A DNA stretch of 64,000 nucleotides from Marsupella aquatica (Eukaryota; Plantae; Marchantiophyta): the NCBI GenBank assembly GCA_973895155.1, contig OZ316897.1, positions 522,515 through 586,514 on the forward strand, in the 5' to 3' direction. The notes beneath the pieces are model-generated. The model saw only the letters and a program-made list of their open reading frames with translations, was not told where the DNA came from and made no database searches. Each line of letters begins with the position of its first letter. Position 1 is the first letter of the stretch. Of this stretch, positions 31,634-64,000 are shown piece after piece. A program made the position numbers and the translations under genes.

Positions 31634-34543
31634 TGTTGACCCTGGTTTGAACTCTATGCAAGAGCCCAAGTCCACCGTACATGGCGCGTTAGGTCATGAA
31701 TCCTTCAATAAACATCTTTACGTGTCATCTACTTGTGGATGCACTACACGGTCTGTAAGTTTTTCTTAAGTCAGAGTAAGTTTTTCTTGAGAGAAACAAG
31801 CTGCAGGCCTGGACATTGCGTTGCAGAAATGCGGTGATACTCACGGACGCACGCAGGGATGCACGTTAGTACTTGTAAGTTTTTCTGTCGAAACAAGCCC
31901 AGACATTCAGAGAAACAAGCCCCGAACATCGCGCTGCTTAATTTGGTGTTACCTTGTTTTTTCATGTTCGATATTCAGCTTGTCGTGCGCATACACATCG
32001 CTACACAACATACATCACTTATCACATACATCCAGACATAGTCACACTGCCACATCACAAACATAAGAGAATGGAATACAAGTGGAACTCATGTCCACAC
32101 ATGTCCAAAACCCATAATAATCTCAATACAATCGGCACAACGATCCCGGTCCACAATACCCCATCGATCCCGCACCGATCTGATCACACATGTATGTCAA
32201 GCCAACACACCTTGCACTACTCAAGGAATCCACGTTACACAAGCGGAGCTCACAACCACCATAGCCACACTCAAGCTCCTCTCTCTCCAAGGCTTAACAT
32301 TGAAAGATGACCTTTCAATGCCTCACAAATGAGAAGTACCCTCTCACACAAACCTGACGGAACCTTATCGGCTCATATAGCACACATACCAAACATACGG
32401 ATCTAGATAGTATGATACACTCTAACACTACCTAGAATGGTGTGACAACTGTCGTGCGCATACACATCGCTTGTCACATATATCCAAACATAGTCACACT
32501 GCCAAATCACAAACACAAGAGAATGGAATACAAGTGGAACTCATGTCCACACATGTCCAAAACTCACAATCGCCCCCCTAGCTGGGAGTAAGGTCCCCTA
32601 ACTCTAGCTAGCCATGAGTTCTATAAGGTTGATATACACCTTTTTAAGTGTGAAGATCAGGAGGCCGGGTGCAAGTGAGCCCCATCGATCATCTACTTGC
32701 AATCCATATCTGCCAAGAGAACACAAATGATAACTAGTCGGCTTCACCGACACTGAGGACACAACCATGATCCACTAGGAATCACCTACAATGGTGGTGT
32801 CAAACATGACATGTGCCATCCTCTAGAACACTTATCACAAATCAACATAGTAGCTGCTCCTTGAGCAGATCAACACAACATACATTTCAAGCCAGCACGA
32901 ACATGTGCCAAGCTTGGATCTACTGTACCATCAATGTTGGGAAGGTGACATGGTGCACAGTTGCGCACATGATCCTTCCAAACCATACCATCGCGTCCCT
33001 CCAACATCAGGACACCAGAAGGCAACACTTCACGCACACGTAAGATTGTTCGGCCTGCGGTCACATCAAGTGTTGTGGGTGCTGTCTGCTGCAAATAAAT
33101 ATAATCACCAGGATGAAATCGTCAAATGTTTGCATGGTAACCTCCTCCACGAATAGTGGCATACCTCAAAGTATCATGATGTTGGGCAATGGCAAGGTTG
33201 TCAAAAGCCATGGGCATCACTCTCTGAAATACCCGTGCTCTCTCTGAACACACCTTGACCCAAACTTAAATAGGATCATCCAAGTTCACAACTGGTGCAA
33301 CATCACGACGAATAGCTGCTGGCAAATCTGGCTCTCTACCATAGAGCAAAAAGTAAGGTGAGAAGGATGCAAGTAATGTTTGCCAACTGAAATGGTAGCC
33401 CATAGCTAACCAAGGTAGCTGGAGATCCCAATCTCCCAGATGACCAACCTGCAAGCCATACTTATGCAATCCTCTCTTCACAGTTTGCACAACTCTCTCA
33501 GCTAATCCATCTGCCTCAGGATGATCACGAGAGGTAGTACGATGATCAATCAGAGCTTGTTCACACAAACTCTCAAACTCTCCACGGAACTCAGTTCCCT
33601 GATCAGTCAACACCTCAGCTGATGCTCCAAAATGACTGAGTACACGATCCAAAAATGTAGCAGCAACTCCTCCACTGGCTTTATCTAGCAACGCCACTAG
33701 TTCAATTGGAGAAGTGCTCCACCATGACCAAAACATACCGATTATGACGTTGGGTAAGAGGTAATGGACCAGCAAAATCCAAACTCCAACGATATCCCAA
33801 ACCCATGATCGGCAACGGGTGCAACTAGGGAGTGGGAGCATTAAATGATGCTCTCACTCTATCACATACCACACACTTAGCTATCAACTACTGGACATGA
33901 GTGTGCATAGTTACCACGCCACCAATACTGTGTTTGCAGCAAGCTGTAAGTGCACTTCACACCAAAGTGACCCAACTCCTCGTGTACATGTCGCACCAAA
34001 TGTACTCGTTGTGATGGTTTTGGTACCACCAATACCCTACCATCATGCAGTACTCTCAAAAGATGGTTTCCCTCCCATCAAAACCTCTTGGCTCTCTGTA
34101 GAACCCTGTCACGTTCTTTGGCATCAACATTGCCAACAATAGAACCACTACGCAGATATTCGAACACTCTCACATCATTATGAATATCTTGTTGTTAAGA
34201 AGTTACCTCACCAACATCCACATCTGAAGACTCATCATCCACTCCATCCAATGAGATAGAGTCCACAGATCCACTGTATGCTGGCACCCAACAAAGAAAG
34301 GCAGATGCATGCCATCCTAGCACCATCTCCTTATCTGACTCATCATGCCATCTGGCTCTAGTCTCATCCTGCTAACTGGTACATGGGTTGCGGCTCAACC
34401 CATCTGCATCCAAGTTCACCTTTCCAGGTCTATGTACAACCTGGAAATCATATTCCTACAACAACAATGCCCATCTTGCAAGCTTCCCAATGAGCTTGTC
34501 AGACTCCATTGACCACTTGAGAGGATGATGATTAGTGATCAAA
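31634..34543 (-). mobile_element. 3' half of a Ty3/Gypsy element: RNase H C-terminus, integrase, C-terminal PHD finger, PPT and ~935-bp 3' LTR (~31634-32568)
   Basis: LITNHHPLKW...GKLARWALLL...NLDADGLSR, HEELGHFG...YWW, VLTDQGTEF, DGLAERVVQTVK, FSPYFLLYGREP; PPT aggggggcgat then TGTGAG at 32568; probable LTR end ...GGGTCAACA at 31634 (less certain). Confidence 0.9.
32744..32884 (-). other. PHD finger (C4HC3) at the Gypsy integrase C-terminus
   Basis: CMLC*SAQGAATMLICDKCSRGWHMSCLTPPL*VIPSGSWLCPQCR*, continuing the frame of ORF 32870-33094. Confidence 0.9.
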
Positions 34544-35299
34544 CACTACTACATATTGGCCCCTTTTGCGAAGCTTTTTTTTTTACGCCGGGATGGTCTT
34601 GCGATGTCATCGACTTCAGATATTTTGTGATCAAACACGCATCACAATAAACCATGCTCAAAGGTTCGCAACATGGTGTTGCGAAGCTAAATACCTCGCA
34701 ATTTTTTTGAGATTGGATTGAATTCGCAACTCTTTCAGATACTATTCGTCTCGCAAAGTGTTTGTGGATCCGCAACCATCGCGACTGCATTTGGATCTCT
34801 TTTGTTTCATAATTTAGCGATAATAATGTACTCAAATATATCTTGTGAACCTATTAGCTTCGCACAATATTGTGAAGTATAAATAGTCGCAAGTTACCGA
34901 AGCCAGTTGATTCGCAAAGTTGAGAACCCATTGGCATCACAATTACCGATGGTGTGTTATTCACAAAGTGTTTAGAAGTTGCTTCTTGACAAGCTTGAAA
35001 ATGTTTTGCAAAGAGAGTTGTTTGAAAATTTTGTAGAATGGAAATGTTTGAGAGAGTTTCTTTACAAGATGGAGAATGCATGTGTTTAGGTTACAGCTAG
35101 GGTTTTCAAAAAGGTGGCATGCATGAGGATAGCTTTGGAAACGGCTAGGGTTGCCTATATAACAGTGAGATGAAATTTTAAAGTCCAATTAAGTGTTTGT
35201 AAAACAAAAGAAGAAAATTAATATGTTAATATAAATAAAACCATGATAGTTAGTTTAGGGTCAAATTCTGGGCCCACAACAAGTTTTACTACTAGTGCA

Positions 35300-38200
35300 T
35301 CAAACCTGGTCCTCATCCTCTCCTCCATTTGACACAATAATAACGTCAGGTTTTTCCGAGATAATGGAACGGGACCGTGGCACATACGGTATAACAACTG
35401 ACCACTCTAGGTCTGGTGGGTACGGAATATAGAAACACTGCTCAAGGTGACTTGGGAATGTAAATGGTTCAAATGTTTGCCAATGAGATGGTTGAAAGCT
35501 AGTTGCTGATGTCTTCCGAGTAAACCCACACTCATCAAGAAGTACCGTGCGATTATCACCAACCAGGTGAATTTTGAACCACTTACACTTGAAGACATAC
35601 TCTTCAAATTTGGAATCGGCATCATAGGATATGATCAAGATCTCCTCAATCTTCCCATAGTGAGGCACCACATCTCTGATCACATTAGTGTCATGACGGC
35701 TACTTTGTGAATCTTGCATGAACTGCCCTTGAACTCCACAATCAAAAGTTCTTCCCCTCTTCTCATCAAGGTCAGAAATCCTGAAATGCCTCCCTTGTGT
35801 CCACATTGCTGTTCTGGTCTGAACAAGTCTTAAAGGACCATGAACAATTGTTCGAACCTCAGGAGTCATATCTGGAAAATGTGATACATTCTCACCTTGG
35901 GCCACCATAGCATCCAACTGAAGTACTTTCTCCTTCATATACTCAAGGAACTTTGGAAAGATCCTTGGGCGACGACTCTCCCTCTTTGCATCCTCATAAA
36001 ACTCTCTCCAATCTTCCATCACATTGCTGTTACTCAACATGAAAGTACTAACCTGTGTCAACTCCACTGCGGTTAGTAAGCGTGTTTTTTTTGCACCTGT
36101 TAAACGGTCCTCCTCCACTTCCCTCTCTTCCATCCAAGTGCGTGGACAACTAGGATCAATGGTAGCTAAGATGTTACTACAATAAAACATACTCTTAGCT
36201 GCCAAGTATCCAGTTGCCATGCTCCCCTCCACTCGTGCATGGTTCCGTACATAAGCCTTTAACACGGCCATATACCTTTCCAGCCAATACATCCACCTAC
36301 AATGCACCGGACCGGCAATGGCAACCTCCCTCACAAGATGAACGAGAAGATGCACCTGACAATCAAAGAAGGAAGGAGGGAAGGCCTTCTCCAACTTGCA
36401 TACCACCTTTGCTGCCAATACCTCCATCCGTGGTATCTCAGATTCTTCATATATTTCCTTTGAGCATATCCATCTCAACAAAGTGCCCAATGACCAAAGG
36501 GCGTCTTGCACTTCTTCACTCCCCAAACCTATGATTGCCACAGGAAGTATATGTTGTAGTAAACGATGATAGTCATGTGTCTTGAGATACATTGGCCATT
36601 TATGACTGTCCTCCATCCCAAAAGCCTTACGTAGATTGGCACCATAGCCTGTAGGAAACCGCATCTGCCCTATGCGTTGTCGAAACTCTCTTCTTTCACC
36701 AACACTCAAAACCCATGGAGCTGAAGGACGATGTTCCATCCCTGTGGATTCATCAACTGTTATCCATACATCTGGATGTCGTTCTAGATCCTGGCATGCC
36801 TCCCTAAAATTAATGTTCTTTTCCCCATAAAAGTGCTTGATCAAAGCCTTCCCAACATTTCCCTCTATATGCATGGGGTCTAACAAGTGATGAATCTTCA
36901 ACTCAGGCCAATAGGGCAAAGTGGCCAGTATACCCCACCTTGTCAATCCACTACCATAAAATCCCATGGCATCTTCAGGGTCTGCCACCCTATCAGCTAC
37001 GGATTTCCAATACAAAAATGTTGTGCGGTCAGGTATCTCACGCTCATCACCATTGATCATGTCAAAGTTTGAAAACAAAAGGGGGTCAGACCTCATGTGA
37101 TGCCCAAGTGGAAGAAACTTGGTATGACCAAGGTAGATTATCTTGTGCAGCCATTTTGAGTACTTGGCCATATCGTGAAGGCTTGGACCACAAGTGGAGC
37201 ATGCCTTGTACCCTTGAGTTTGGAACCCAGAAACAAACCCAAACCCTGCTCACAAAATAACATTCTCAATTAGCGTCAAAGGAATTGAAAAGTTCATGTA
37301 CATAGAATTAAAGAGGGACTTCCTTCCAAACAAACTTGATCTCCAATACATGAAAAAAATACAAATCCATACCACTCACTTGGATAGTCATGCATGGTCC
37401 ACATAATGATTCCCTTCAATTGGAAGACACGTGGTAACCCTCCTGTAGTTGTCCGACCATCATATGCCCATACACCCCCCCATAATTTATGGAGTTCCCC
37501 AACCAAGAGCGCCAAGTAGGTGTCCATGTCTTTTACCTTAGATGGACCTGGGATAATCAATGATAGCAATAAGAATCCCTTTTTCATGGACAACCATGGG
37601 GGAAGGTTGTAATTCATAACAACCACCGGCCAAACCGAAGTAGGGCGCCCTTTCCCTCCAAGGGAGTGTGGGCTTACCCCATCTGATGCCAACCCCAACC
37701 TCACATGACGAGGGTCACGTGCAAATTCTGGCCATTGTGACTCCACATGCTTGTGAGCAGGGGAATCAACTGGCAACCGCATGACACCAGCCTCTGATCG
37801 ATGTGTCTTATGCCATACCATCAATTCTGCCAAGTCAGAACATCGGTACATGTGCAACAATCGAGGAATAATAGGAAACCAACGAACAGCTTTTCTAGGC
37901 ACCTTTGAGGTCAACATGTTGGTTTCATATCGAGGCTCTTGACAAATTGGACACTCAGTTGCGCTGGCATTGGTCTCATGATAGAGAATGCAATCATTCA
38001 CACAAGCATGAATGATATGGTATTCCATGCCAATGGATGATAGAACCCTCTTTGCCTCCTTCCAAGTTCCTGGCAACACATTTTCACTAGGTAACAAGAG
38101 ATCATGGCAAATTGCAAACAAATCCGATAGTAGCGCATTGCTTGCCTTGTGTTTTGCCTGAAGATTCATCAATGCCAAGATGGCAGATAGTCTATTCAAA

Positions 38201-39726
38201 CGAGCACCCCCATAAATAGGTGTTCTAGCATGTGCCTCAGCTTCTTCCCATTGTTTTTGTCCTTCAGGTGTACGTTGAGGCCTTGGATCATGTGCAACAT
38301 TTGGTGGAGGGTCTCCTTCATTGGGTGGGACACCTCCTTCACCACCAATGTCTACACCAAACCAATCTGTCATGAAGTCATCCATGGCTGACTCTTGGTC
38401 TTGCATGACCTCATAATCTGTCCGAGGTGCCCCTTCATCTGGACTGTCATTATCATTGTCACTTGATGAGGAATCTGCTGATGATGTTTCCCCATCTTGT
38501 GGCAAGCCCATTTCTTGATATGTAGCTCTCAACCTCCTTGGCAACATATCTTGACTAGGCCGCACATTCTATAGAAAATACAATAAAGTATTCACAATGA
38601 AATTAACGCCAAATATAGTAGTGCTCGAAACATATTATTAACAATATAAAAAGAACATGTCATTACAAAACATACGTTCACATACGATGAACGTATAATA
38701 CATGTCCCTAAAGTAATCCTAATCCCATTCATAATGTGTAAACAACTCCTCTCCAACCAGAATGGTCCTATTAGCTACAACTAGACAATGGTCATGATGA
38801 TATCTCTGCCCATAAGGGGCTGGAGGGGGACCATCAACAAAAACCCATTCACAGTTTTTCCTACGCTTAGGCCGGGTCCCCACAGTACTGTTGATGAAAC
38901 CGGCAATATTCCCACTACGGATGGGATCACCATCAATTATACGCTGGTCACAATACTTTCTGGTGCAACCATCAAAAGTATCCATGTCCAATGCATAAGT
39001 CTTCCACTCAGGGTGTCGAACTCTTGACAACCCAACGTCTTCCCCAAACTTCTATCTCCTCACCATAGGTTATATCACATGGCAAACCAAGGCACTCCGG
39101 GTTCCAATCCTTTATGATAGGAACACACTTCCCTGTGAAGGTACAAGGGCCCCATCTACCATCAACCCTACAAGTGTACTGATCCACTTCCCCTCTAGGC
39201 TGTCTTTTTGACCTTTTTTTTCCCTCTTGTAACAATACCGTCACCCTGAATTGTCCCAACACTACCTTGCCCTGCTGCCACTAAACAAAAAGCTTGTGAA
39301 AGTGCCGAGCCTATAGCATCTAGAACTCCTTGTGAGGGAACATAGGGTGTTGGTGTAGTGGGTGTAGGCCTACTAGATACCTATAGGAAGAAATGGAACC
39401 AAGTGAGTGTGATGAACCTCCCAAATTTTATTTTATGCTACCTAGCAAGATTTACAAAATAAAATGGAAATCACAGTAAGTTTACAACTCACCATACGAG
39501 ATGAAGAAGCTCCCGGTGTAAGACCTCGATGTTGGCCATATCGAGCAATGTGCTCCGCACATACATATGACTTTTGGACAACCATCCCCACACATTTTTT
39601 ACAACCACAAAGTTGGCGTGGTGGACCACTAGGTCGACGTACGGTTGGTTCAGGTTGAGGAGGAGGATGACTTTCTTCATCGGAAGAGGAATCTGATGTG
39701 GTGGAAGTTGTAGAGGATGAAGACAT
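35300..39726 (-). CDS. CACTA TnpD-like transposase (Transposase_21 + DUF4218 + DUF4216 type); exons 39726-39493, 38568-37380, 37245-35300 (~1122 aa)
   Basis: IHACVNDCILY, ECPICQEPRY, RHVRLGLASDG, NYNLPPW, MHDYP, GYKACSTC, LDPMHIEGNV, LKTHDYH, HLLVHL, RWMYWLERYM, FKCKWF; GT-AG junctions restore one continuous frame. Confidence 0.9.
38719..39280 (-). pseudogene. SET-domain exon of CACTA copy A (155-bp internal deletion)
   Basis: IDGDPIRSGNIAGFINS...KNCEWV...LVVANRTILVGEELFTHY; deletion relative to copy B positions 62985-63139, bounded by gttcgac/gttcaac. Confidence 0.8.
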
Positions 39727-40159
39727 CTGACAAGTATAGCAATTGGAAGGCGATTAGTAAAAACTTCACCAAAACCATCATTGATAATCCCTACCTAAAC
39801 ATATTAAAAAGAATTGACAGAAAAATACCTTTATGAGACCCGGGCTTAGCAATGCCTTGACGGATCTTGTGGCTCAAATTTCATGAACCAAATTTGGAAG
39901 GAGGGGAAAATCTGCCAATATACAATGAATTAAGCCATGCCTTATGGTGAACCAGAAAAAAAGGATGATAGATTGTAACCCTCCATATTTACAGCAATGA
40001 CTAGAAATGCATGAGAAAATGTTATACCTTTCAGATGCCCGGGCTCTCGCAAGGCATTATCATGCATTAGCCAAAACTTTAAAAAATATGGGGAAGTGCC
40101 CTACAACGCCAAAGAGTTTTCCTCTCCATGTTAATGAGATAGACAAAGAAATATAAGTA

Positions 40160-41100
40160 ACCCAAACCCTACCCTAAACCCAAACCATGAAATGAAACCC
40201 TTCATTAAAACCTAACCCAAATCCCTCAATCACCCTAAACCCTTACCCTTATCCTAACCAATACCCAAATCCCTCATTAAAAATTCAAACCTTTACCCTA
40301 AACCCAAACCCCTACCCTAAACCCAAACCATGAAATGAAACCCTTCATTAAAACCTAACCCAAATCCCTCAAGCACCCTAAACCCTTACCCTTATCCTAA
40401 CCAATACCCAAATCCCTCATTAAAATTTCAAACCTTTACCCTAAACCCAACCCAAATCCCCCAATTACATATAAAACTCTTACCCTATCTACACCTTACT
40501 TTACCTATATAGGCCAACCCCCACCCCTATAGTTATTCTAAACTTCACCCTAACCCCTAAATTGAGGCCCTTTTTTAAAACTTAAGCAAAAATTGTACCC
40601 CCTCAATTAGAACCAAATCCAACCCTATATCATGTTACACCCCAACCCAAACACTTACATTAGAAACCCAACCCCTTTAAAAAAACCACAATTAAACCCC
40701 CCAACTAAAAACCAAACCCAATCCCTTTAAAAAACAACCACAATTCAACCCCTCAACTAAAACCAAACCCAACCCCTGTAATTACTCACAACCTAATGCA
40801 AACCTCTACCTTGAACCCTAAGCCAAACCCATTAATTTAAACCCAACCCTTTTATTCCAACCTAACCCAAGTTTTAACCCCCTTAATTAAACCAAATACT
40901 CCTAGATTAAAACCAAATATAAACCTAACCTTTAATTAAACCCAAACCTTTGTTAACTTATATTCTAGTTATCCTTACAACCCAAACATCCATTGACACC
41001 CCTTCCATGTTAACTTATGGGCACTTAACATACCTTAAATGTCGTTTGACAAACCTTAATAGCCGTTTGACACCCCAAAGTGTTTTCCAACCCTAAACCG
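40160..41100 (+). repeat. C-rich degenerate telomere-like (CCCTAAA/AAACCC) tract between the divergent CACTA genes, with a ~143-bp duplication
   Basis: Dense aaaccct/ccctaaa/aaacccaa motifs; mirrored in copy B at ~60900-61840. Confidence 0.8.
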
Positions 41101-41443
41101 ATAAGACCTGCCTCGCAAATTATTTCACAAGTTAGAGAATATTTTTGCGAACCTACGACCTTCGCACTTGCTTCGCAATAACAGAGGCCGAGAACAATTT
41201 TTTGGGTCTTCTGCGGGTTGCGATGGCTTTGCGAAGGGAATAGATTCGGAAGTGCCTCGCAAGTTGCGAGACTATTTGCGAGGGCACGGGCTTCGTAGTT
41301 TCCCATGCGTATGTCATTGCAAACCCGTTTTTGAACGGCGTAAACATCGGCGGGAGCTCGCATTCGGGCTCATTTCAGTTTTTGAGCGAGACGAGAAGGG
41401 CCGGGGCGCAACAGTACGAGGGAGACTGTGAGAGAGGGGAGCT

Positions 41444-43489
41444 ATGGCTACCGGTGAGGGGAGTGGAGGGCAAGGTGGTAGTGGTAGTGGTAGTGGCAAT
41501 GGGGGAAATCCAGAGAATGAGAAGAATGCCTGGGCAGACTTAGTGGCCCAACATCTCAGTGCTGCACAATTGGGAGAAGTGAATCTCAATTCTCCAGCAG
41601 GGCTTGCCTCTTTGAGTGCCATTCTTGGACAGGTTTTGCAAACTGGGATTGTAGCAGGACAAGCTACTAGAGAGGGGGAGGAGAGGGCCGCAGCTGAAGA
41701 GAAGGCTAGAGAGAAAAAAAGGAAGAGAGAGGAAAGAACTAAGTCGGGAGTTGCCTCTCCTCAAGCCCTAGAGAAGCAGAAGAGAAGAGAGGAGAGAGAT
41801 TCAATTCGAAAACAGAGGGAGGAGCAACGTCAGAAAGAGGAAGCAAGAAAAAAACTTCCATTCATTGCCTTGGAGACGAGTGGGACTCCAACTGAGCTAG
41901 CATATGCAGGGGCTAAGAGCACAATCAAGCAGATTATCACAAGCAATTTCTCACGAGGCATGCAGTGGGGGAAGATTGAGAAGGCAGAGCGAAAGAGGGT
42001 CATCAACCAAATCAAGGATGCATTTTGCAATGGGCCTGACATAGATGAGCAATGGTTGGCAGATAAGATTTCAAATTCTATGTCTCAAATGCGATACCAT
42101 GACAGGATGAAGATTAGAGCCCACCTGAAAGACTTGAGATCATACAGGAACTTGCGCAGACCCCTCCACTTCACCGAGGACATCTGGAATTTGTTTTACA
42201 AGATTGAGGTGCAAATTAAGGCAGCTCACGAGTTGGAAGAGTGGAAGGGCAATCTAGATCGAGCCTTGAAAGCAAAGGAGGCCGGGAAGCTCCCCCCTAA
42301 CCACGACCTGAAGCCACTTGAGCAGAAGGTAGCTGAGATGCAGAAGGTGGCCGACCAGGAGGGAAAGCCACCCAAGCGTTTCACAGATGCAGCCAAACGA
42401 GTGAAATCCACCCCCAATCCAGTCCACAAGTTGGGTCAAGGCGGGCTCCCCGGCCTCAAGACACACTTTGTGAGTGCCTCTTGCTCCTCCCTAACCTCTC
42501 TATTCCTTTCAGAGTTGTGCAATGCAAGTGAATGACATCCCCGAAGGTTCTTGCTGTTGTGCATGCTTGCTTGGTTACTAGTTTAGGGCAACTCTGACAC
42601 TTAGAATTTCTGGCAAATTTTTAAAAACTCTCGGGAACACATTTTGCGAAGGTGTTGCGATGCGTATTTGTTCGCAAACCCCTCGCAAAGTCTATCATAG
42701 ACTTTTTCCATTTCAATTTTCCGATGCCTTTGCGAACAAATATGCATCGCAAACTCCATCGCAACGCCTTCGCAAAAAAAGGTGGTTCGCAAGTTGCTAT
42801 GCTTATAGGTTCGCAAATTTGAATTTTAAATTTTTTTTGGGTCATGTTTAGTAGTTGAGGATTTAGGCGTCACTTGTGGCTATAGGGTATGCTTAAGGGC
42901 AAATTTAACCAATTTTAATTGGTTTTATGCATGGCAGTATCGGAGGTACAAAAGGAAGATATCAAAAAAGCATATTGAGGTGGCGATAGAGCATGGACGA
43001 AAGTACCTCTTTGCGATGGTAGATGCCGAGTTGGCTACTGTAAGTGTCTAAGTGTGAACCATATGATTAGCATGCGAACATTGTGAGTGACCCTTTATGT
43101 CTTGCGGAAACTAATGATATGTAATGGATGCAGGATTCGGATGAGCCTGAGGGGTCGGGTGCTGATGTGACCAGTAGTGATGACGATGAGGGGGCTACTC
43201 CTGGTACTAGTGGTGCTCGGGGGGGAGTAGTCGTGAGGTAGGTTCTTCCCACCGTGGTAGTGGTGGTAGTCGTGTGTCATCAGCACACGTTGATGACCAG
43301 GGGGAGGAGGAGGACCCTGAGGATGAGGAGGAGGAGCAGGAGGGGCAGGAGGAGCCAGAGGAGCAGCAGGAGCAGGAGCAGGAGCGCCGACGGCCATCAC
43401 GCACCCGTCACCAACAGGATCCCCGGAAGGATAAGGGCAAGAAGCCAGCCAAGAAGCCAACCAAGAGGAGCCGCAAGAGCCCATTCTAG
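41444..43489 (+). CDS. CACTA accessory (TnpA/ORF2-like) protein; exons 41444-42469, 42938-43039, 43134-~43489 (frame break at a G7 run ~43219-43225)
   Basis: Coiled-coil N-terminus, W..I...ER....I helical region, HKLGQGG motif typical of En/Spm accessory proteins, GT-AG junctions, acidic/basic tail. Confidence 0.7.
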
Positions 43490-45233
43490 TTATTTTGTAG
43501 AGATACATGCATGAGAGTGACTTGTCATGCCGGAGCTTAGGGTAGGAAGAGGCAGCATAGGTTTAGAAGGGCGGACCTAGCATCAGATATTTCCCCCCTC
43601 TTGTCCATGTATAGGGTTCTTTGAAGCCCTATCATTTTGTTCATGCTTTTCCATTTTATAAAACAACAATTTTGCCTTCCACATTGGGTTCCAAGGAAAA
43701 CCCCTCGCAAATAATGTATTGAATCCTGTGTGATCATAATTTTGCGAACCCTTTAAGAACTCATTCCCATCGCACAATATTAACCCCAAGGCGTCGTACT
43801 TTTTGAGTCAATTAACTTCAGAACTTCAGATCCAAATATGTTGGGTTTTTGTGATACTTCTAGGATCGCACTTTCCTAATCGCAACCGTTCACAAACTTC
43901 TGAAATCACCGGTATCGCTCTTTGTCATACAATCCCCATCAAAACAATTGAACCAGTATCAATCGCAAATATGATGCGATGGTAAATCCGTCTCAAATAT
44001 TGACGCCCACGCGGGACGTGTGCGTGTATGTTTGCGAACCTTATGCGACGTATAATGGATCGCAGAAGTATTGAATATTGCGAACCTCTCAGCTTCTCAG
44101 TTTGCCATGATGTTGCGATGCCGTTGCGATGGTCCGCGTGCGAAGTTATTAGGTTCGCAAAGTGCGAAGGGGGTGCGATGCGCGTATGTTCGCAATAGCC
44201 AGAATTATGAAAATCAGGGGCTTGTTAGTTGTGATGAGATTGTCTTCGCAAAACGGGCCGATAGTGTTGTAGTGGATAACAATTTTTGGGCACTGTATTT
44301 TCAATGAGAACTGGGGAAATATCCCAGCACATACTTTAGATTAACAAAAGCACTGGGGAGGAACCTCTGGCCGTAGACAACTGATGGTCCTGTGTGTCTA
44401 CAAAGCATTGTAACAAAATGAGGTGGCTACTTGAACACTACTGCCAAAGATTGGGTCCAGCAGGAAGACACTATCGTGGTGTCGCTTCAATCCTCCCACC
44501 AGCTCGGCTTGTATGCGTCGGAGTTGTTGTTGGAGTCGCTAGAACCAACGCCCCAGCGAAACCCACCCCAGTTGCCAGACGAGTCATCGGTCGACCCCGA
44601 GTGGTCGCTCTGCTCCTCCTCCTCACCCAAAGAACTTTTGGCCGGGCCATGTGACAGATGGGAGGTCAAAACCTTTGCCATTGATCTAAGGAGAATGTGC
44701 GCTGAGGGTGGCACCTCCACTTTACACTGAAAAGGAGTATTTGCAGTCAAAGGAGTCGGTCGGGTCTTGACGATTGCTTTCCCCTTGGCCGTGATCGGGA
44801 CTGCCATTACTCGAGTTGAAGGCATCGCAATGGCCTTCTCCAAAGCGCCTTTGCTAGCAATCTTGCTAGCAAAGGTCACCTTTCCCTTCCCCTTCGCTCA
44901 TGGCGGAGCCATCAGAGTAATCAAAAGTTCACCCTAAACTCCTCAATTGAAAGCGGAGCGGTGAGCGGAAATGTGAGCAGAGTGCTTTGTGCAAACAATT
45001 GTGACAGAGAGAATGAGAAATGAAGGGCGGAAGAGACGGCCAACTGGTTTTGGAGGCAAAGCTCAGGCGTTCCGAAGTGCATATGGATGTCTGAGATGCA
45101 CCGGGAAAGACGACTCATATGCATCGGCCGATATTTGATATCTATTGTGCGTGACAAATTTATTGTACACGTGCGAATTGGGACTGAGTCATGAGTTCCG
45201 TATGCACAGCCAGCCAGGACATATTCCGTACAC

Positions 45234-53566: not shown

Positions 53567-54892
53567 TTACAATTTCCTAGCTGATCCACGACCTCTTCCT
53601 CGTCCTTTGACAGGTGGTTTAACCTTTTCAACTGACTTTAAGGCAACATTACCACCCTTGTCATGAGCAAGATCCAATCCTAGACTGATAGCAACACCCC
53701 TTAACTTCCCCTTAGCTTGAGAGGAGCTTGTGCCATTCTTCTCCTCGGCCTTTCGCTTTTTGCTACTCCCCTTACAAGACTCAGAGCCAGGCTCCTCGCC
53801 AGGCTCAGAGTCAGAGACATTCTCCACCTGAGTGACCAAACAAGGTTCTGGAGCAGCACCCTTTTCGACCTTCACAATTGAGAGATTCACCTCGCCCTTG
53901 GACTCCGGGGCTGATGTCTGCGTTTGAACTAGAGTAGGAACTGACTTGATGTCAACTTTTGAGACCCTCAACAACTCATGGTGTACATGTGCAGCTTCAC
54001 CAACAGCCTCATGATATTTGATAGACTTCTTCACACTTTCCTACAGCGCAAAACAATATCCCACAATTAGCAATTGACCAATATCCCCGCTAATACCAAT
54101 GTACGACAAAGCTAGATCACTAAGGCTCTTTTGAAAAGAGATAGATTGTTCTTCCAAACCCCAATCATCTGCTAGCTTCACTACATCTGGATGGTCCACT
54201 CGGGATGAGCCCCAGCACTTCAGCCAGGCTAGATGAAACACTTCAGCACAGGCTAAACACTTAGGAGGTTTACTGTCACCGTTTCGAAGCAACGGGAACA
54301 AACAACTTGGATGATAGCAATGTCCACACGATGTGGGAATCCAATTGTTACAAAAGAAGCCAAGAGAGCAAACACGGCAACCTCCACCTTTGGCAACCTC
54401 CACAGTGTATGGTTGAAACTTTCCGATTCCGTCCAGCGCATAGGTAAGCATGGCGATGTCGTCGGCAGGAATCCCCTTAACACCATCCTTCTTGTAGCCG
54501 TTCTTCCCAGACTTGTTCCCAAAATACTCCTCCAACACCTCAGCGGACACGTCTTCACTTGTGAGCTCCTTCGGAATGCTTCCCACATTGGGCAAGCCAA
54601 GGACATTGTGGAAATGATCGATGTCCTTCACAAACTCATCAATTGTCCACTCTTCTGATGAGGGGACCTTTACAAGACTCTCACCGTGTGATTTCGGTGG
54701 TAGCTTGTGACTCGTGGACTTTCCAGGCATTTCAGAAGACATACCTACTGTGTAGCTTGAGTTCTCCCAGCTGCTCACTCCAAGCGTTGGCAACAAACTA
54801 TTTGGGCACAAACCTGCGCTATGCGACTCCGCCTGAGTCCCTTGAAAGCACGTTACTCCAGAGTCTGACTCGTCCCTTCCAGTGCCTTGCGC
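53567..54892 (-). CDS. RING-finger protein with basic low-complexity C-terminus (multi-exon or pseudogene, probable TE cargo)
   Basis: CRVC...TSCGHCYHPSCL...KCLAC; acceptor taattcag|gc at 54893/54892; the second ORF 53567-54034 is in the same frame. Confidence 0.65.
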
Positions 54893-55678
54893 CTGAATTA
54901 CAACACAAGAATGTGAGTTCAATGTCGAGTCTCATTTGAAAAGATTGAATGTGTGCCTAATGCGTGGCCTAGATCATAGAAGACATTCAATATTAAACAA
55001 GTGGGGAAGAAAACAATCAGAGCAACTTTCTGAGTGTCCTCAACTTTCAAAATTGTAGCTCAGGTCCTGTAACTCTTCAATCTCCACAACACAAACGAGA
55101 ATGCAACAAGTTCCAGAGATTCAAATGCTTGCAGCCCTCGACCAAAAGCAACTTCCTGCGCCAAAATGCAATGTCATTCCCTCCCGCGTTCCCTCCCTTG
55201 CTACCTAATCAAGGATCACAATGTTGCGGTCTTCTCCAACTGGCACATTGCGCAACATTCAAACTGGAGTATGCATCGTGAAAGTTGATTCAACGCGACA
55301 AAAAGGAAATAGAAAGGAAGTGCGCACTTTGCGCCCAGGTCTCCCTTGATTGCAGGCAATGCTACGGTTTGGATCATCCTTCTAGCAGGAAGGGTCAAGA
55401 TCCAACAATGCTACTCCCTCAACCACCACCACTGATCTTCATTGCCACCACGGCACGGTTCGGATTTGCTGACCTTTCTAATTTTGAAATGATAGGAGGT
55501 TACGGTAGTAATGTCTTTTCGGCCCTTCCTCCCTCCAACGTGATTGTACTTGCAACAACCTCCTCCCTCATCATTACATGACTTGTAGTACTAACTGTAC
55601 TATGAGCTCTGTGGTAGGGGTGGTATTAGGAGGGGTATTATTTTGCTCAAATTAGACCCCCTCTAGCTTGCTTTTGCC

Positions 55679-56210
55679 TTGTTAGGTGATGATCATCATC
55701 GGATTGTTGCCAATGTTCACCAGGTGAGGTCTTGGATTGGACCTGCTATGTTATTGGATGCTGCACGTGTGGGTTCTCATGCACATTGTCCACGCTTGTG
55801 GTGGACTAATCTGATCCCATGTGAGGTGCTGAAGCGCGCATTTGACAACATTCCACGCTCACCAGCCTTAGTGGTGGATAATATTTTGGATCCAGGACGT
55901 CGTGCACAAGGTGTGATCCAACCTGATAGACCTCCATTGGCAATGGTCAATGCAGTTGGGCACCCACGTTGTGCATTACTCACTCTTGTAAGCCACTTTG
56001 CTTCATATGCATTCAGAGCAGGTGGCCCTGGACTTGTGTGGGACACAGCTCTCCAGCAGTTAGTGGAACCTACTGCTGATGAGAGAGAGCATGCTATGGG
56101 ATTTTTGACTGGCACCACTATAGTTGCCTTTGTGCTAGAGGGTTTGCAGCGCCAGGTTCTTGGTCAAGCAATGGATCTGAATTGTTTGACTTGGATTATC
56201 AGCTTGGGAG
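55679..56210 (+). other. DNMT3/DRM-like C5-cytosine methyltransferase domain (motifs VIII-X) in the Gypsy pol frame
   Basis: LDAARVGSHAHCPRLWWTNL (motif VIII), EPTADEREHAMGF..GTT (IX), QRQVLGQAMDLNCL (X); same frame as RT ORFs 56441 and 56642. Confidence 0.82.
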
Positions 56211-57730
56211 TAGCTGAACAGTTGCGGATGCGCTCTACTGGAATTACTGATTGTCCCTTGGTGAGCTTGCGGTCCACTAAGACAGTACTGACCACAGCTG
56301 GGGGCAAGCAGACAGTCCATGGACCTATGGCAGGATTGGCCAAGGCTGGACAGATTGTTGAGCAGGAAGGGACTGCTCAATCTACTACTAAATAGCAATC
56401 ATCGGCTATCTCTTCTACCCTACAAAGAGATATTAGGGATTTGGTGGAGAGTTGGGAACCACAGCTTGGCCCTAAGTTGACAGGGGAGGAGAGACGTCGC
56501 ATGCATCGATTCCTGAAGAGTTATTGGAATTGTTTTGCATTTAGCATGAAAGATATGGGGACATTAAAGGGTCCTGGTATTCAGATTGAATTGGCTAGTG
56601 ATGCGCCAATCTTTCATATCTGACCATACCGTTATAGTGACATGGAGAGAGCTCTGATTCAAAGCAGAACTCAAGATTTGTTGGAGGCTGGATTGGTGGA
56701 GATTTCATATGGGGAGTATGCATCTGCCATAGTGATGCCAGCCAAGAAGGATGTGCATGGCAATTACACAGATAGGCGCATGTGTGGTGATTATAGACCC
56801 ATTAATCGCCAGACAAAATTTGATAGATATGCCATGCCCACACCTGAGGAGATCTTTGATGTTGTGGGGCATGCAAAGGTTTTCAGTTCATTGGATCTGA
56901 GGGCAGGGTACCATCAGCTTCCAATTAGGCATGCTGATAGGTCCAAGACAGCATTCTGGGGGAGTGATTCTTATGGCAAAGATCGTTTGTATCAGTGGTT
57001 ATTCTTACCATTTGGGTTGAAGAATGCACCAGCTGAGTTCTAGAGAGTCATGGATCGAATCCTTGCAGGTTTGGATTTTGTCAGATGTTATATTGATGAT
57101 ATTTTGGTCTATTCTTCTACTATGGAAGAACATTAGCAGCACTTGCAGATTGTGTTGGAGAGATTGAGAGCACATGGGTTGGAAACTCCATCCTAGCAAG
57201 TGTAAGTTCTTCCAAGACCAGATTGAGTATTTGGGCCACACTATATACCCAGGGGGATTGGGTGTACAACAAACTAAAGTGGAGGCCATTACACAGATTC
57301 CTTGTCCTACTGATGTGAGCAGAGTTCATGCATTCTTGGGATTGGCGAGCTACTACAGGAGGTATGTTAAAGGATTTAGCCAGCTTGCTAAACCTTTAAC
57401 CATACTCACTAAGTTGGATCAGGAATGGACTTGGGGTGATGACCAGGAGCATGCCTTTCAGGAGTTGAAGCAAAGGTTGGCATCATCCCCTATTTTGAGA
57501 AGACCCATTTCAGGCAGACCATTTAAGCTACACACTGATTGGAGTGGAGTAGGACTTGGAGCAGTGCTGACTCAGAAAGATGATGAAGGGCATGAGTTTG
57601 TTGTGGCATATGCCAGTAGATCAAACAATTCAGCAGAAGCTAAGTATAGCTCTTATGAGGGAGAGTGTTTGGCAGCAGTGTGGGCTGTGGCACACTTTCG
57701 CTGTTACTTGTTTGGTAATCCTTTCACTTT
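55679..57730 (+). mobile_element. 5'-truncated 5' half of the same Ty3/Gypsy element: C5-DNA-methyltransferase C-terminal part, RT, RNase H N-terminus
   Basis: RMCGDYRPIN, LDLRAGYHQ, PFGLKNAP, YIDDILVYS, FLGLASYYRRYV, LHTDWS, VAYASR, YSSYEGECLA; ends at FGNPFT|CACTA. Confidence 0.93.
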
Positions 57731-58514
57731 CACTACAACACTATCGGCCGGTTTTGCGAAGACAATCTCATCACAACTAACAAGCCCCTGATTTTCATAA
57801 TTCTGGCCATTGCGAACATACGCGCATCGCACCACCTTTGCACTTTGCGAACCTAATAACTTTGCACGCGGACCATCGCAACGGCATTGCAACACCATGG
57901 CAAACTGCGAAGCTGAGAGGTTCGCAAGATTCAATACTTGTGCGATCCATTATACGTCGCATAAGGTTCGCAAACATACACGCACACGTCCCGCACGGGC
58001 GTCGATATTTGAGAAGGATTTACCATCGCATCATATTTGCGAAATATATTGGTTCAATTGTTTTGATGGGGATTGTATGACAAAGAGCGATACCGGTGAT
58101 TTCAGAAGTTTGTGAACGGTTTTGATTAGAAAAGTGCGATCCTAGAAGTATCACAAAAACCCGACATATTTGGATCTGAAGTTCTGAAGTTAATTGACTC
58201 AAAAAGTGCGATGCCTTGGGGTTTATATTGTGCGATGGGAATGAGTTCTTAAAGGGTTTGCAAAATTATGATCACAGAGGATTCAATACATTATTTGCGA
58301 GGGGTTTTCCTTGGGACCCAATGTGGAAGGCAAAATTGTTGTTTTATAAAATGGAAAAGCATGAACAAAATGATAGGGCTTCAAAGAACCCTATACATGG
58401 ACAAGAGGGGGAAATATCTGATGCTAGGTCCGCCCTTCTAAACCTATGCTGCCTCTTCCTACCCTAAGCTCCGGCATGACAAGTCACTCTCATGCATGTA
58501 TCTCTACAAAATAA

Positions 58515-60549
58515 CTAGAATGGGCTCTTGCGGCTCCTCTTGGTTGGCTTCTTGGTTGGCTTCTTGCCCTTATCCTTCCAGGGATCCTGTTGGTGACGGG
58601 TGCATGATGGCCGTCGGCGCTCCTGCTCCTGCTGCTCCTCTGGCTCCTCCTGCCCCTCCTGCTCCTCCTCCTCATCCTCAGGGTCCTCCTCCTCCCCCTG
58701 GTCATCAACGTGTGCTGATGACACACGACTACCACCACTACCACGGTGGGAAGAACCTACCTCACGACTACTCCCCCCCGAGCACCACTAGTACCAGGAG
58801 TAGCCCCCTCATCTTCATCACTATTGCTCACATCAGCACCCGACCCCTCAGGCTCATCCAAATCCTGCATCCATTACATATCATTAGTTTCCGCAAGACA
58901 TAAAGGGTCACTCACAATGTTTGCATGCTAATCATATGGTTCACACTTAGACACTTACAGTAGCCAACTCGACATCTACCATCGCAAAGAGGTACTTTCG
59001 TCCATGCTCTATCGCCACCTCAATATGCTTTTTTGATATCTTCCTTTTGTACCTCTGATACTGCCATGGATAAAACCATTAAAATTGGTTAAATTTTCCC
59101 TTAAGCATACCCTATAGCCACAAGTGACGCCTAAATCCTCAACTACTAAACACAACCCAAAAAAATTTTAAAATTCAAATTTGCGAACCTATAAGCATGG
59201 CAACTTGCGAACCACATTTTTTGCAAAGGCGTTGCGATGGAGTTTGCGATGCGCATTTGTTCGCAAAGGCATTGGAAAATTGAAATGGAAAAAGTCCATG
59301 ATAGACTTTGCGAGGGGTTTGTGAACAAATGCGCATCGCAACACCTTCGCAAACTGTGTTCCCGAGAGTTTTTAAAAATTTGCCAAAAATTCTAAGTGTC
59401 AGAGTTGCCCTAAACTAGTAACCAAGGAAGCATGCACAACAGCAAGAACATTCGGGGATGTCATTCACTTGCATTGCACAACTCTGAAAGGAATAGAGAG
59501 GTTAGGGAGGAGCAAAAGGCACTCACAAAGTGTGACTTGAGGCCGGGGAGCCTGCCTTGACCCAACTTGTGGACTGGATTGGGGGTGGATTTCACTCGTT
59601 TGGCTGCATCTGTGAAATGCTTGGGTGGCTTTCCCTCCTGGTCGGCCACCTTCTACATCTCAGCTACCTTCTGCTCAAGTGGCTTCAGGTCGTGGTCAGG
59701 GGGGAGCTTCCCAGCCTCCTTTGCTTTCAAGGCTCAATCTAGATTGCCCTTCCACTCTTCCAACTCGTGAGCTGCCTTAATTTGCACCTCAATCTTGTAA
59801 AACAAATTCCAGATGTCCTCGGTGAAGTGGAGGGGTCTGCGCAAGTTCTTGTATGATCTCAAGTCTTTCAGGTGGGCTCTAATCTTCATCCTATCATGGT
59901 ATCGCATTTGAGACATAGAATTTGAAATCTTATCTGCCAACCATTGCTCATCTATGTCAGGCCCATTGCGAAATGCCCTTGATTTGGTTGATGACCCTCT
60001 TTCGCTCTGCCTTCTCAATCTTCCCCCACTGCATGCATCGTGAGAAATTGCTTGTGATAATCTGCTTGATTGTGCTCTTAGCCCCTGCATACGCTAGCTC
60101 AGTTGGAGTCCCACTCGTCTCCAAGGCAATGAATGGAAGTTTTTTTCTTGCTTCCTCTTTCTGACATTGCTCCCCCTCTATTTTCGAATTGAATCTCTCT
60201 CCTCTCTTCTCTTCTGCTTCTCTAGGGCTTGAGGAGAGGTAACTCCTGACTTAGTTCTTTCCTCTCTCTTCCTTTTTTTCTCTCTAGCCTTCTCTTCAGC
60301 TGCGGCCCTCTCCTCCCCCTCTCTAGTAGCTTGTCCTGCTACAATCCCAGTTTGCAAAACCTGTCCAAGAATGGCACTCAAAGAGGCAAGCCCTGCTGGA
60401 GAATTGAGATTCACTTCTCCCAATTGTGCAGCACTGAGATGTTGGGCCACTAAGTCTGCCCAGGCATTCTTCTCTTTCTATGGATTTCCCCCATTGCCAC
60501 TACCACTACCACTACCACCTTGCCCTCCACTCCCCTCACCGGTAGCCAT
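58515..60549 (-). pseudogene. CACTA accessory gene of copy B, disrupted
   Basis: Homologous to 41444-43489 but with in-frame stops (ORFs end at 60178 and 59734) and a frameshift near 59975. Confidence 0.8.
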
Positions 60550-62272
60550 AGCTCCCCTCTCTCATAGTCTCCCTCGTACTGTTGCGCGCGCCCCGGCCCT
60601 TCTCGTCTCGCTCAAAAACTGAAATGAGCCCGAATGCGAGCTCCCGCCGATGTTTACGCCGTTCAAAAACGGGTTTGCGATGACATACGCATGGGAAACT
60701 GCAAAGCCCGCGCCCTCACAAATAGTCTCGCAACTTGCGAGGCACTTCCGAATCTATTCCCTTCGCAAGGCCATCGCAACCCGTAGAAGACCCAAAAAAT
60801 CGTTCTCGGCCTCTGTTTTTGCGAAGTAATTGCGAAGGCCGTAGGTTCGCCAAAAGATTCTCCAACTTGTGAAATAATTTGCGAGGCAGGTCTTATCGGT
60901 TTAGGGTTGGAAAACACTTTGGGGTGTCAAACGGCTATTAAGGTTTGTCAAACGACATTTAAGGTATGTTAAGTGCCCATAAGTTAACATGGAAGGGGTG
61001 TCAATGGATGTTTGGGTTGTAAGGATAACTAGAATATAAGTTAACAAAGGTTTGGGTTTAATTAAAGGTTAGGTTTATATTTGGTGTTAATCTAGGAGTA
61101 TTTGGTTTAATTAAGGGGGTTAAAACTTGGGTTAGGTTGGAATAAAAGGGTTGGGTTTAAATTAATGGGTTTGGCTTAGGGTTCAAGGTAGAGGTTTGCA
61201 TTAGGTTGTGAGTAATTATAGGGGTTGGGTTTGGTTTTAGTTGAGGGGTTGAATTGTGGTTGTTTTTTAAAGGGATTGGGTTTGGTTTTTAGTTGGGGGG
61301 TTTAATTGTGGTTTTTTTAAAGGGGTTGGGTTTCTAATGTAAGTGTTTGGGTTGGGGTGTAACATGATATAGGGTTGGATTTGGTTCTAATTGAGGGGGT
61401 ACAATTTTTGCTTAAGTTTTAAAAAAGGGCCTCAATTTAGGGGTTAGGGTGAAGTTTAGAATAACTATAGGGGTGGGGGTTGGCCTATATAGGTAAAGTA
61501 AGGTGTAGATAGGGTAAGGGTTTTATATGTAATTGGGGGATTTGGGTTGGGTTTAGGGTAAAGGTTTGAATTTTTAATGAGGGATTTGGGTATTGGTTAG
61601 GATAAGGGTAAGGGTTTAGGGTGCTTGAGGGATTTGGGTTAGGTTTTAATGAAGGGTTTCATTTCATGGTTTGGGTTTAGGGTAGGGGTTTGGGTTTAGG
61701 GTAAAGGTTTGAATTTTTAATGAGGGATTTGGGTATTGGTTAGGGTGAGGGTAAGGGTTTAGGGTGATTGAGGGATTTGGGTTAGGTTTTAATGAAGGTT
61801 TCATTTCATGGTTTGGGTTTAGGGTAGGGTTTGGGTTACTTATATTTCTTTCTCTATCTCATTAACATGGAGTGGAAAACTCTTTGGCGTTGTAGGGCAC
61901 TTCCCCATGTTTTTAAAAGTTTTGGCTAATGCATGATAATGCCTTGCGAGAGCCCGGGCATCTGAAAGGTATAACGTTTTCTCATGCATTTCTAGTCATT
62001 GCTGTAAATATGGAGGGTTACAATCTATCATCCTTTTTTTCTGGTTCACCATAAGGCATGGCTTAATTCATTGTATATTGGCAGATTTTTCCCTCCTTCT
62101 TCCAGATTTGGTTCATGAAATTTGAGCCACAAGATCCATCAAGGCATTGCTAAGCCCGGGTCTCATAAAGGTATTTTTCTGTCAATTCTTTTTAATATGT
62201 TTAGGTAGGGATTATCAATGATGGTTTTGGTGAAGTTTTTACTAATCGCCTTCCAATTGCTATACTTGTCAG

Positions 62273-64000
62273 ATGTCTTCATCCTCTACAACTTCCACCA
62301 CATCAGATTCCTCTTCCGATGAAGAAAGTCGTCCTCCTCCTCAGCCTGAACCAACCGTACGTCGACCTAGTGGTCCACCACGCCAACTTTGTGGTTGTAA
62401 AAAATGTGTGGGGATGGTTGTCCAAAAGTCATATGTATGTGCGGAGCACATTGCTCGATATGGCCAACATCAAGGTCTTACACCGGGAGCTTCTTCATCT
62501 CGTATGGTGAGTTGTAAACTTACTGTGATTTCCATTTTATTTTGTAAATCTTGCTAGGTAGCATAAAATAAAATTTGGGAGGTTCATCACACTCACTTGG
62601 TTCCATTTCTTCCTATAGGTATCTAGTAGGCCTACACCCACTACACCAACACCCTATGTTCCCTCACAAGGAGTTCTAGATGCTATAGGCTCGGCACTTT
62701 CACAAGCTTTTTGTTTAGTGGCAGCAGGGCAAGGTAGTGTTGGGACAATTCAGGGTGACGGTATTGTTACAAGAGGGAAAAAAAAGGTCAAAAAGACAGC
62801 CTAGAGGGGAAGTGGATCAGTACACTTGTAGGGTTGATGGTAGATGGGGCCCTTGTACCTTCACAGGGAAGTGTGTTCCTATCATAAAGGATTGGAACCC
62901 GGAGTGCCTTGGTTTGCCATGTGATATAACCTATGGTGAGGAGATAGAAGTTTGGGGAAGACGTTGGGTTGTCAAGAGTTCGACCCTAGGGGAGAGGCAT
63001 GGGTATGGGATTTTCTCTTGTCAGGACATTATTGTGGATGATATGGGTGGAAAAGGGCGCTCTTCGGATGGACCAACGTTATTCCCGTATGGTGGACCCA
63101 TTTACAAGAGGAGACATTGGAACATGATCCTTGTTCAACACCCTGAGTGGAAGACTTATGCATTGGACATGGATACTTTTGATGGTTGCACCAGAAAGTA
63201 TTGTGACCAGCGTATAATAATGGTGATCCCATCCGTAGTGGGAATATTGCCGGTTTCATCAACAGTACTGTGGGGACCCGGCCTAAGCGTAGGAAAAATT
63301 GTGAATGGGTTTTTGTTGATGGTCCCCCTCCAGCCCTTTATGGGCAGAGATATCATCATGACCATTGTCTAGTTGTAGCTAATAGGACCATTCTGGCTGG
63401 AGAGGAGTTGTTTACACATTATGAATGGGATTAGGATTACTTTAGGGACATGTATTATACGTTCATTGTATGTGAACGTATGTTTTGTAATGACATGTTC
63501 TTTTTATATTGTTAATAATATGTTTTGAGCACTACTATATTTGGAGTTAATTTCATTGTGAATGCTTTATTGTATTGTCTATAGAATGTGCGGCCTAGTC
63601 AAGATATGTTGCCAAGGAGGTTGAGAGCTACATATCAAGAAATGGGCTTGCCACAAGACGGGGAAACATCATCAGCAGATTCCTCATCAAGTGACAATGA
63701 TAATGACAGTCCAGATGAAGGGGCACCTCGGACAGATTATGAGGTCATGCAAGACCAAGAGTCAGCCATGGATGACTTCATGACAAATTGGTTTGGTGTA
63801 GACATTGGTGGTGAAGGAGGTGTCCCACCCAATGAAGCAGACCCTCCACCAAATGTTGCACATGATCCAAGGCCTCAACGTACACCTGAAGGACAAAAAC
63901 AATGGGAAGAAGCTGAGGCACATGCTAGAACACCTATTTATGGGGGTGCTCGTTTGAATAGACTATCTGCCATCTTGGCATTGATGAATCTTCAGGCAAA
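62273..64000 (+). CDS. CACTA transposase of copy B, partial (exon 62273-62506, next exon from 63585)
   Basis: MSSSSTT...CGCKKC...CAEHIARYG...RM|gtgag; tatag|AAT GTG CGG (NVRPSQDM...) in phase 0. Confidence 0.85.
62719..63434 (+). pseudogene. SET-domain exon of CACTA copy B (1-bp frameshift at ~63218)
   Basis: VVKSSTLGERHGYGIFSCQDI...LFPYGG...YAL; after the frameshift GNIAGFINS...GEELFTHYEWD*; acceptor tttttgtttag|TGG at 62718/62719. Confidence 0.85.

Follow-up and report, generated by a model that had tools for sequence, protein, structure and literature searches.

Do the retrotransposons of land plants carry DNA methyltransferases of their own? The question is raised by a locus in the liverwort Marsupella aquatica, where the end of a cytosine methyltransferase and the reverse transcriptase (RT) of a Ty3/Gypsy element follow each other in one reading frame. 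It had been predicted from these letters that a land-plant Gypsy family has the methyltransferase as a standing part, with a one-off chimera as the opposing case. We find that the element in the window (by which we mean the whole 64-kb stretch of DNA that we analyzed) is a broken copy of a Gypsy family that has its own DNMT3-type methyltransferase and occurs in liverworts, peat mosses, and green algae.

A broken copy and its surroundings

The original prediction placed motifs VIII, IX, and X of a C5-methyltransferase in the frame of the RT, and they are there: an open frame of 238 codons begins at 55679, it holds motif VIII (55757-55810), motif IX (56066-56104), and motif X (56150-56179), and the RT continues in the same frame (Table 1). 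The first arginine of the RxR in motif VIII has been lost in this copy. The expected truncation near motif VI is also borne out, as the copy starts just past the position of the ENV of its relatives (residue 489 of the protein P0002). Searches of the 64-kb window with tblastn and blastn did not find the rest of the 5' half, with gag, the protease, motifs I-VI, and repeat A1, anywhere else, which agrees with what had been said of the missing parts. The methyltransferase in the window is a fragment and not a whole PF00145 enzyme.

Table 1. Features of the broken element and of the transposons that interrupt it
Feature	Position in window	Strand	Remarks
3' split repeats	31981..32570	-	B1 32570-32450; 2-bp spacer; A2 32447-32119, starts TGTCA; B2 32118-31981, ends CGACA
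Purine run, polypurine tract-like	32571..32580	-	
Displaced 3' half: RNase H end, integrase (H2C2, rve), C-terminal PHD finger	32744..34543	-	Several stops and frameshifts
CACTA/EnSpm copy 1 (Transposase_21, DUF4218)	34544..44274	-	Flanks disagree: ATC at 5' end, TTT at 3' end
21-bp terminal-repeat-like motif at exact 5' break of methyltransferase	55658..55678	-	Second copy 31356-31376 (+)
C-terminal half of DNMT3-type C5-cytosine methyltransferase, motifs VIII/IX/X and target-recognition region	55679..56242	+	5'-truncated, motifs I-VI absent
Linker, end of ORF1	56243..56392	+	Motif X to stop 77 residues, same length in P0002
Conserved stop TAG, then CAA TCA	56393..56401	+	Between ORF1 and ORF2; predicted read-through site of type I (tobamovirus-like)
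Reverse transcriptase	56396..57250	+	YIDD 57089-57100; stops 56621, 57041, 57134; frameshift near 57181
Connection and RNase H	57251..57730	+	Cut at 57730 by CACTA insertion, flank TTT
CACTA/EnSpm copy 2	57731..64000	+	Inverted, 97-98% identical to copy 1; runs off window

When the translated fragment was checked against PF00145, as had been suggested, there was no Pfam match, because the Pfam model scores the N-terminal half of the domain, which is missing here. The fragment alone had no sequence match in PDB either. On a profile of 36 relatives, with the window's own row left out, the fragment scores 267 bits, and the best of 200 shuffles scores 0.8. When longer proteins were searched with the fragment, 44 of 1499 candidates passed E<=0.001, and most of the 44 have PF00145. 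The closest is P0002 (79% identity), which carries a protease and the whole methyltransferase domain; identity to Marchantia proteins is 63%. With a structure model of the fragment (pLDDT 75.5), DNMT3A/B came first, weakly, in both Foldseek (E 0.017) and VIA (Z 6.6, rmsd 5.7, 143 aligned), and the next rows in VIA were other C5-methyltransferases.

The element had been given a span of 55679..57043. The start holds and the end does not: the element continues past 57043. Its integrase-PHD half and 3' repeats lie inverted at 34543-31981, and this displaced half opens with TTT directly after the 3' end of CACTA copy 1 and goes on with the next codons of the RNase H. The pieces in the window are collinear with three relatives (L051, L056, and L075), and only the 3' end of the element is present. 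Between RNase H and integrase (33900-34543, minus strand) there is only a short acidic linker, at the place where another architecture, discussed below, has its methyltransferase. The simplest reading of the swapped CACTA flanks is that one CACTA inserted into the RNase H and that the 13.5-kb block between the opposed copies was then inverted, or that the assembly was joined across them. Recombination between inverted CACTA copies (or the join) would then have flipped the middle block.

The 21-bp motif at the 5' break has two matches in the window and none in 100 shuffles. It is likely the end of a MULE-like element with its transposase at 46214-47662, which would have inserted into the methyltransferase of this copy. 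We also considered one intact MULE that spans both motifs and is flanked by a target duplication; the flanks agree at best in 6 of 8 letters. The MULE-like DNA transposon block (44275-55678, about 11 kb) also contains a NIF/FCP1-like phosphatase ORF (49460-49933), a RING-like Cys/His ORF (54041-54931), and tandem arrays of 71, 61, 23, and 21 bases; its transposase-like ORF has no Pfam match and falls in Atlas MULE clusters (0.95). Two degenerate 320-bp tandem units at 30045-30684 have ends like the 21-bp motif and are possibly MITEs.

The observed/expected ratio of CpG is 0.19-0.35 in the element versus 0.68-0.74 in two host genes. Such strong depletion indicates that the element was methylated for a long time and is now dead, and it does not tell which enzyme was responsible. 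Elsewhere in the window there is a young Ty1/Copia element (23092-29829) with a small number of stops and frameshifts, 109-bp LTRs that are 98% identical, and a CpG ratio of 0.80. An ERGIC-3-like gene (9319-10515) and a cysteine-synthase-like gene (PALP; 14033-15505) are both intronless; these families have introns in most plants, so these are possibly retrocopies, or the host may be intron-poor. Finally, 16940-20857 (minus strand) holds, twice in tandem, a 365-aa ORF that has no Pfam match and is beta-rich in look; the two copies have diverged and are 66-81% alike over parts of their length.

A family with its own methyltransferase

Named carriers of the family are Marchantia polymorpha, M. 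paleacea, Calypogeia fissa, Riccia sorocarpa, four Sphagnum species, Closterium, Cymbomonas, and Haematococcus, and one Marchantia protein (P0016) has PF00145 together with RT/RNase H. Of 600 pattern matches on metagenome contigs, 452 also encode a relative, and we kept the best 80 loci, near-copies included. Where they are long enough, most of these 80 have the domain order Gag-CCHC-protease-methyltransferase-RT-RNase H-integrase-PHD, which contains the Ty3/Gypsy order protease-RT-RNase H-integrase with a DDE integrase. Because the loci were collected by way of the methyltransferase, relatives that lack it would be missed.

Summed contig depth over the methyltransferase part is about the same as over the RT in all four runs that hold the element. 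For example, in run X1 it is 203-303 thousand over the methyltransferase, 158-416 thousand over the RT, and 0.4-1.2 thousand over the flank; these depths are not copy numbers, and the best run may be the source of the window. Also, in four runs, the codons of motif VI follow where loose contig ends extend past the 5' break. Two decayed copies (L062 and L066) have the protease and the N-terminal half of the methyltransferase on the opposite strand.

Could this copy still be a chance motif match, or a one-off chimera of a host DNMT3 or DRM gene fragment and a Gypsy RT? The lack of a Pfam match for the fragment might be taken that way, as might the abrupt beginning of the copy beside unrelated DNA. 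However, a transposon end sits at that break, the same fusion occurs in hundreds of relatives across many hosts, contig depth is equal over the methyltransferase and the RT, and the trees of the two domains indicate that they are inherited together. We give chimera and chance almost no credence, and a land-plant Gypsy family with the methyltransferase as a standing part is what remains of the original prediction.

The domain had been called DNMT3/DRM-like. The first half of this label agrees with motif order, profile, and fold; the second half fails. In full-length relatives, FxG, (P/E)C, EN, RxR, and motif X follow one another in the canonical order I-IV-VI-VIII-X, whereas DRM has VI-X before I-V, so DRM is excluded; nor does a motif I follow motif X in the window. 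PF00145 scores above its cut-off in P0002, P0004, P0010, P0016, and L060. On the family profile, DNMT3A scores 102 bits, ahead of DRM (tobacco-type, 66), a phage methyltransferase (63), and HhaI (40). A model of the full domain of L002 (pLDDT 93.6) matches DNMT3B/3A in Foldseek with E 3e-19 and TM 0.72/0.84. The domain is of the DNMT3 type by motif order, and DNMT3 is its nearest solved enzyme in both profile and fold; the ranking against other methyltransferase classes is read from profile scores. A viral origin of the domain found no support: the one IMG/VR match in four candidate stretches is the phage methyltransferase, which scores below DNMT3A. That phage C5-methyltransferase (L081:8034-8882) has a DNMT3-like motif VIII and is a useful root for DNMT3 trees.

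In an alignment of 59 rows, the catalytic cysteine is kept by 22 of the 23 upstream-type rows (methyltransferase ahead of the RT) that are ungapped there, and by all 31 of the downstream type (methyltransferase behind the RNase H). The glutamate of ENV is kept in 23/23 and 31/31 of these rows, and RxR is kept across both architectures. In motif IV, EC takes the place of PC in 7/23 upstream-type and 22/31 downstream-type rows. A divergent subfamily (L069-L080, about 40% identity) has WEC in motif IV.

Full-length relatives are about 9.1-9.7 kb long. At the 5' end they have a repeat A (TGTCA), and at the 3' end a purine run, B, two bases, A, and B (ending CGACA). We did not find two complete identical LTRs in them: the 5' end has A only and the 3' end has B-A-B. 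The 3' repeats of the window share their layout with L009, L010, L051, L056, L068, L072, L075, L076, and L080. The ends are TG/CA, and 4-bp duplications flank L051/L056, L072, L075, and L080, with none matched at L076. Behind A1, no TGG-type tRNA primer site was seen in four of four loci inspected. In DIRS/PAT elements, split repeats are replicated with an internal junction as the template for the ends. By analogy, the internal B-A junction would likely template both ends in reverse transcription here. We also considered Troyka and rejected it: as defined in the available text of PMC12440569, Troyka needs CG...CG ends and a 3-bp duplication and occurs in animals only, as opposed to TG/CA and 4 bp here.

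A conserved stop between two reading frames

Two stop codons in the frame, TAG at 56393 and TGA at 56621, had been put down to C>T decay. Neither is simple C>T decay, as the first is conserved in the family and the second coincides with a small indel that is private to this copy. For the first stop we compared 61 rows, that is, those of the 80 loci that have both the end of the methyltransferase and the start of the RT, with one deletion locus dropped and the window added. TAG or TAA followed by CAR occurs in the RT frame in 45 of the 61, 111-144 bases ahead of the start of the RT probe; because the loci include near-copies, these are not 45 independent cases, and on trees they amount to about five lineages. 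Nine of the 45 (the window and eight others, spread over several lineages) have strict CAR-YYA, while 36 (the main peat-moss-like subfamily) have CAA-CCC/CTC, mostly followed by ATG. Of the 16 rows without the stop signal, nine belong to the divergent subfamily, and in five of these (L070, L072, and L076-L078) the linker contains no stop at all; the other rows are mostly decayed. At positions 56393-56401, no other letter reaches a 3% share in any of four runs, and six sites within twelve bases vary.

In L060, a 1369-codon frame and a 1047-codon frame are separated only by TAG CAG TTA; the first frame holds the methyltransferase and the second RT-RNase H-integrase-PHD. Also, P0002 and ORF1 of the window share their last residue position. 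The letters around the stop in the window, AAA-TAG-CAA-TCA-TCG, match the pattern xxA-UAG-CAR-YYA-xxG in the available text of Firth et al. 2011 (PMC3159437), which defines the type I read-through motif of tobamoviruses. The likeness extends to the upstream adenines. We predict that the junction of ORF1 and ORF2 is likely a site of programmed read-through. As in tobamoviruses and MuLV, the stop would separate an abundant product from a rare one, but in MuLV it comes directly after gag, and here the protease and the methyltransferase precede it.

Instead of read-through, ORF2 might depend on re-initiation, on splicing, or on a promoter inside the element, which would still leave the methyltransferase at the level of Gag. 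In the main peat-moss-like subfamily, the ATG lies two codons past the stop, which would allow re-initiation, and the gag-pol stop context of Candida Tca2 alone gave no read-through in yeast (PMC2194720). On the other hand, there is no such ATG in the window or in L043, L058, L060, L064, or L065, where CAR-YYA is kept; the reading frame is preserved across the stop; and some relatives have one continuous frame. We think that these other routes are very unlikely, and we continue with read-through.

The methyltransferase had been described as part of the pol frame. Instead, the domain ends ORF1, together with Gag and the protease, and lies ahead of the conserved stop. Given this placement, and if read-through occurs as we predict, the methyltransferase would be a Gag-level product and not a minor domain of Pol. 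The position of the stop is a first clue to stoichiometry.

Evolution and possible role of the methyltransferase

The element most like ours by description is KnitGypsy-Dnmt3 of Klebsormidium nitens (de Mendoza et al. 2018, PMC5890265). According to the available text of that paper, it has Gypsy domains, an unpermuted and intronless DNMT3-type domain under purifying selection, and DIRS-like split repeats (A1...B1-A2-B2), all as in the family described here. It differs in that its methyltransferase shares one ORF with the RT, while in the lineage of the window the methyltransferase ends ORF1 before the stop; one ORF for both is found here only in other subfamilies (the L072 group, P0076, and P0203). 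Also, a PHD-integrase, read-through, and a second position of the methyltransferase are not among the features described in the available text. No Klebsormidium-named protein is among the matches listed in our searches.

The same text describes SymbioDIRS-Dnmt3, which also has a DNMT3-type domain in a split-repeat retroelement and which methylates CG de novo in yeast; however, it is a dinoflagellate tyrosine-recombinase element, whereas a DDE integrase, TG/CA ends, and 4-bp duplications mark the Gypsy family. The fold, the motif order, and the catalytic residues are shared with animal DNMT3A/3B and with bryophyte DNMT3 (Yaari et al. 2019, PMC6453930, in its available text). But identity over the structural alignment is about 20%, and the domain in the element lacks PWWP/ADD or the plant DUF, has a longer target-recognition region, and is part of a polyprotein.

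KnitGypsy-Dnmt3 was presented as a lineage-specific acquisition of one charophyte, and the land plants in that survey, as far as the available text goes, were five angiosperms, Selaginella, and Physcomitrella, with no liverwort and no peat moss (PMC5890265). The available text of PMC6338049 states that such elements are absent from land plants "such as tracheophytes", and that of PMC12344493 repeats the earlier report. Such elements are not mentioned in the available text of PMC6317226, PMC6453930, PMC11982613, or PMC8616336. In open-access text, with Repbase and most subscription journals outside our scope, we found no publication on these methyltransferase-carrying elements in land plants. 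The published picture is of a single Klebsormidium acquisition, and what is new here is the extension into land plants, with a genetic model among them. The named relatives, in two liverwort orders, peat mosses, Closterium, Cymbomonas, and Haematococcus, indicate a much older and wider family.

Has the methyltransferase been maintained by selection? In two bins of dS, the median dN/dS was 0.54 and 0.39 for its C-terminal half versus 0.54 and 0.37 for the RT, and judging from these ratios the C-terminal half is constrained like the RT. Values for the N-terminal half were higher and noisy (0.64 and 0.82). Between the window and the peat-moss-like loci, dN is 0.27-0.39 and dN/dS is about 0.1-0.2, with dS near saturation (1.7-3.2). 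In young pairs, dN/dS nears 1, as expected of dead copies.

The methyltransferase occupies two positions. It lies ahead of the RT or behind the protease in 49 proteins (one of them the window's) and behind the RNase H in 40. Most of the 24 long distant matches that we scanned have the order RT-RNase H-methyltransferase-integrase-PHD, and these distant relatives are probably chlorophyte. One branch separates the two positions in both trees, with SH-aLRT support of 97 for the methyltransferase (59 rows) and 100 for the RT (45 rows); the trees are quick and unrooted, without outgroups. RT and methyltransferase path lengths correlate with rho 0.76 in 16 upstream-type rows and with rho 0.23 in 29 downstream-type rows, where the trees have little resolution. 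Judged from very few names, streptophytes fall on one side and chlorophytes on the other (Cymbomonas and, presumably, Haematococcus). The simpler reading is that the methyltransferase was acquired once and later moved; the alternative is that related elements acquired it in two separate events.

What might the enzyme do? We lean slightly toward the view, built from the domain order and the predicted read-through, that the methyltransferase is likely produced in the same amounts as Gag, enters the particles with it, and would methylate new cDNA of the element. ORF1 would give Gag, protease, and methyltransferase, and occasional read-through of the stop would add RT, RNase H, integrase, and the PHD finger. 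The element's protease would release the methyltransferase, so that each particle would contain many molecules of it and few of RT or integrase. De novo methylation of unintegrated cDNA, presumably of CG type, would then let new copies arrive already marked, and so either quiet or resembling host heterochromatin. The PHD-integrase would read the chromatin at the target and insert the methylated cDNA.

Alternatively, the methyltransferase may act in the nucleus in trans, on integrated copies (as self-restraint), on competing elements, or on host loci. If the enzyme is made in bulk with Gag, much of it would remain free, the copies are heavily CpG-depleted, and de Mendoza et al. name self-limitation that benefits the host as an option (available text of PMC5890265). 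Still, fusion to Gag and protease puts the enzyme at the site of particle assembly, and the second architecture has it between RNase H and integrase, that is, alongside the pre-integration complex. So action in trans seems unlikely to us. It seems more doubtful yet that the domain is kept for nucleic-acid binding or RNA methylation and not for DNA methylation. The replacement of PC by EC in many rows would fit such a role, as would the lack of methylation by KnitGypsy-Dnmt3 in yeast, a result called inconclusive in the available text (PMC5890265). But the catalytic cysteine, the glutamate, and RxR are retained in both architectures, and the fold and the profile are nearest to DNMT3, which acts on DNA, and far from DNMT2. 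We therefore return to methylation of new cDNA.

A broader reading is tentative, and we consider it possible rather than probable: an ancient clade of green-plant Gypsy elements, with split repeats, a PHD-integrase, and an active DNMT3, would extend from chlorophytes to bryophytes. In streptophytes, its methyltransferase would have left Pol and settled at the end of the Gag frame, ahead of a leaky stop, and so become a high-copy particle enzyme that pre-methylates cDNA.

In Marchantia, many copies are annotated as hypothetical proteins (for example, Mp_4g09160, Mp_8g17980, Mp_6g11220, and Mp_2g26090), so it becomes testable in a genetic model why retrotransposons keep a methyltransferase. Also, counts of bryophyte methyltransferases and work with dnmt3 and drm mutants may have an enzyme that is unaccounted for. 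If the broader reading is true, then methylation written by the element itself would be a standing strategy of transposition in land plants, and Marchantia and mosses would have a hidden source of de novo methylation.
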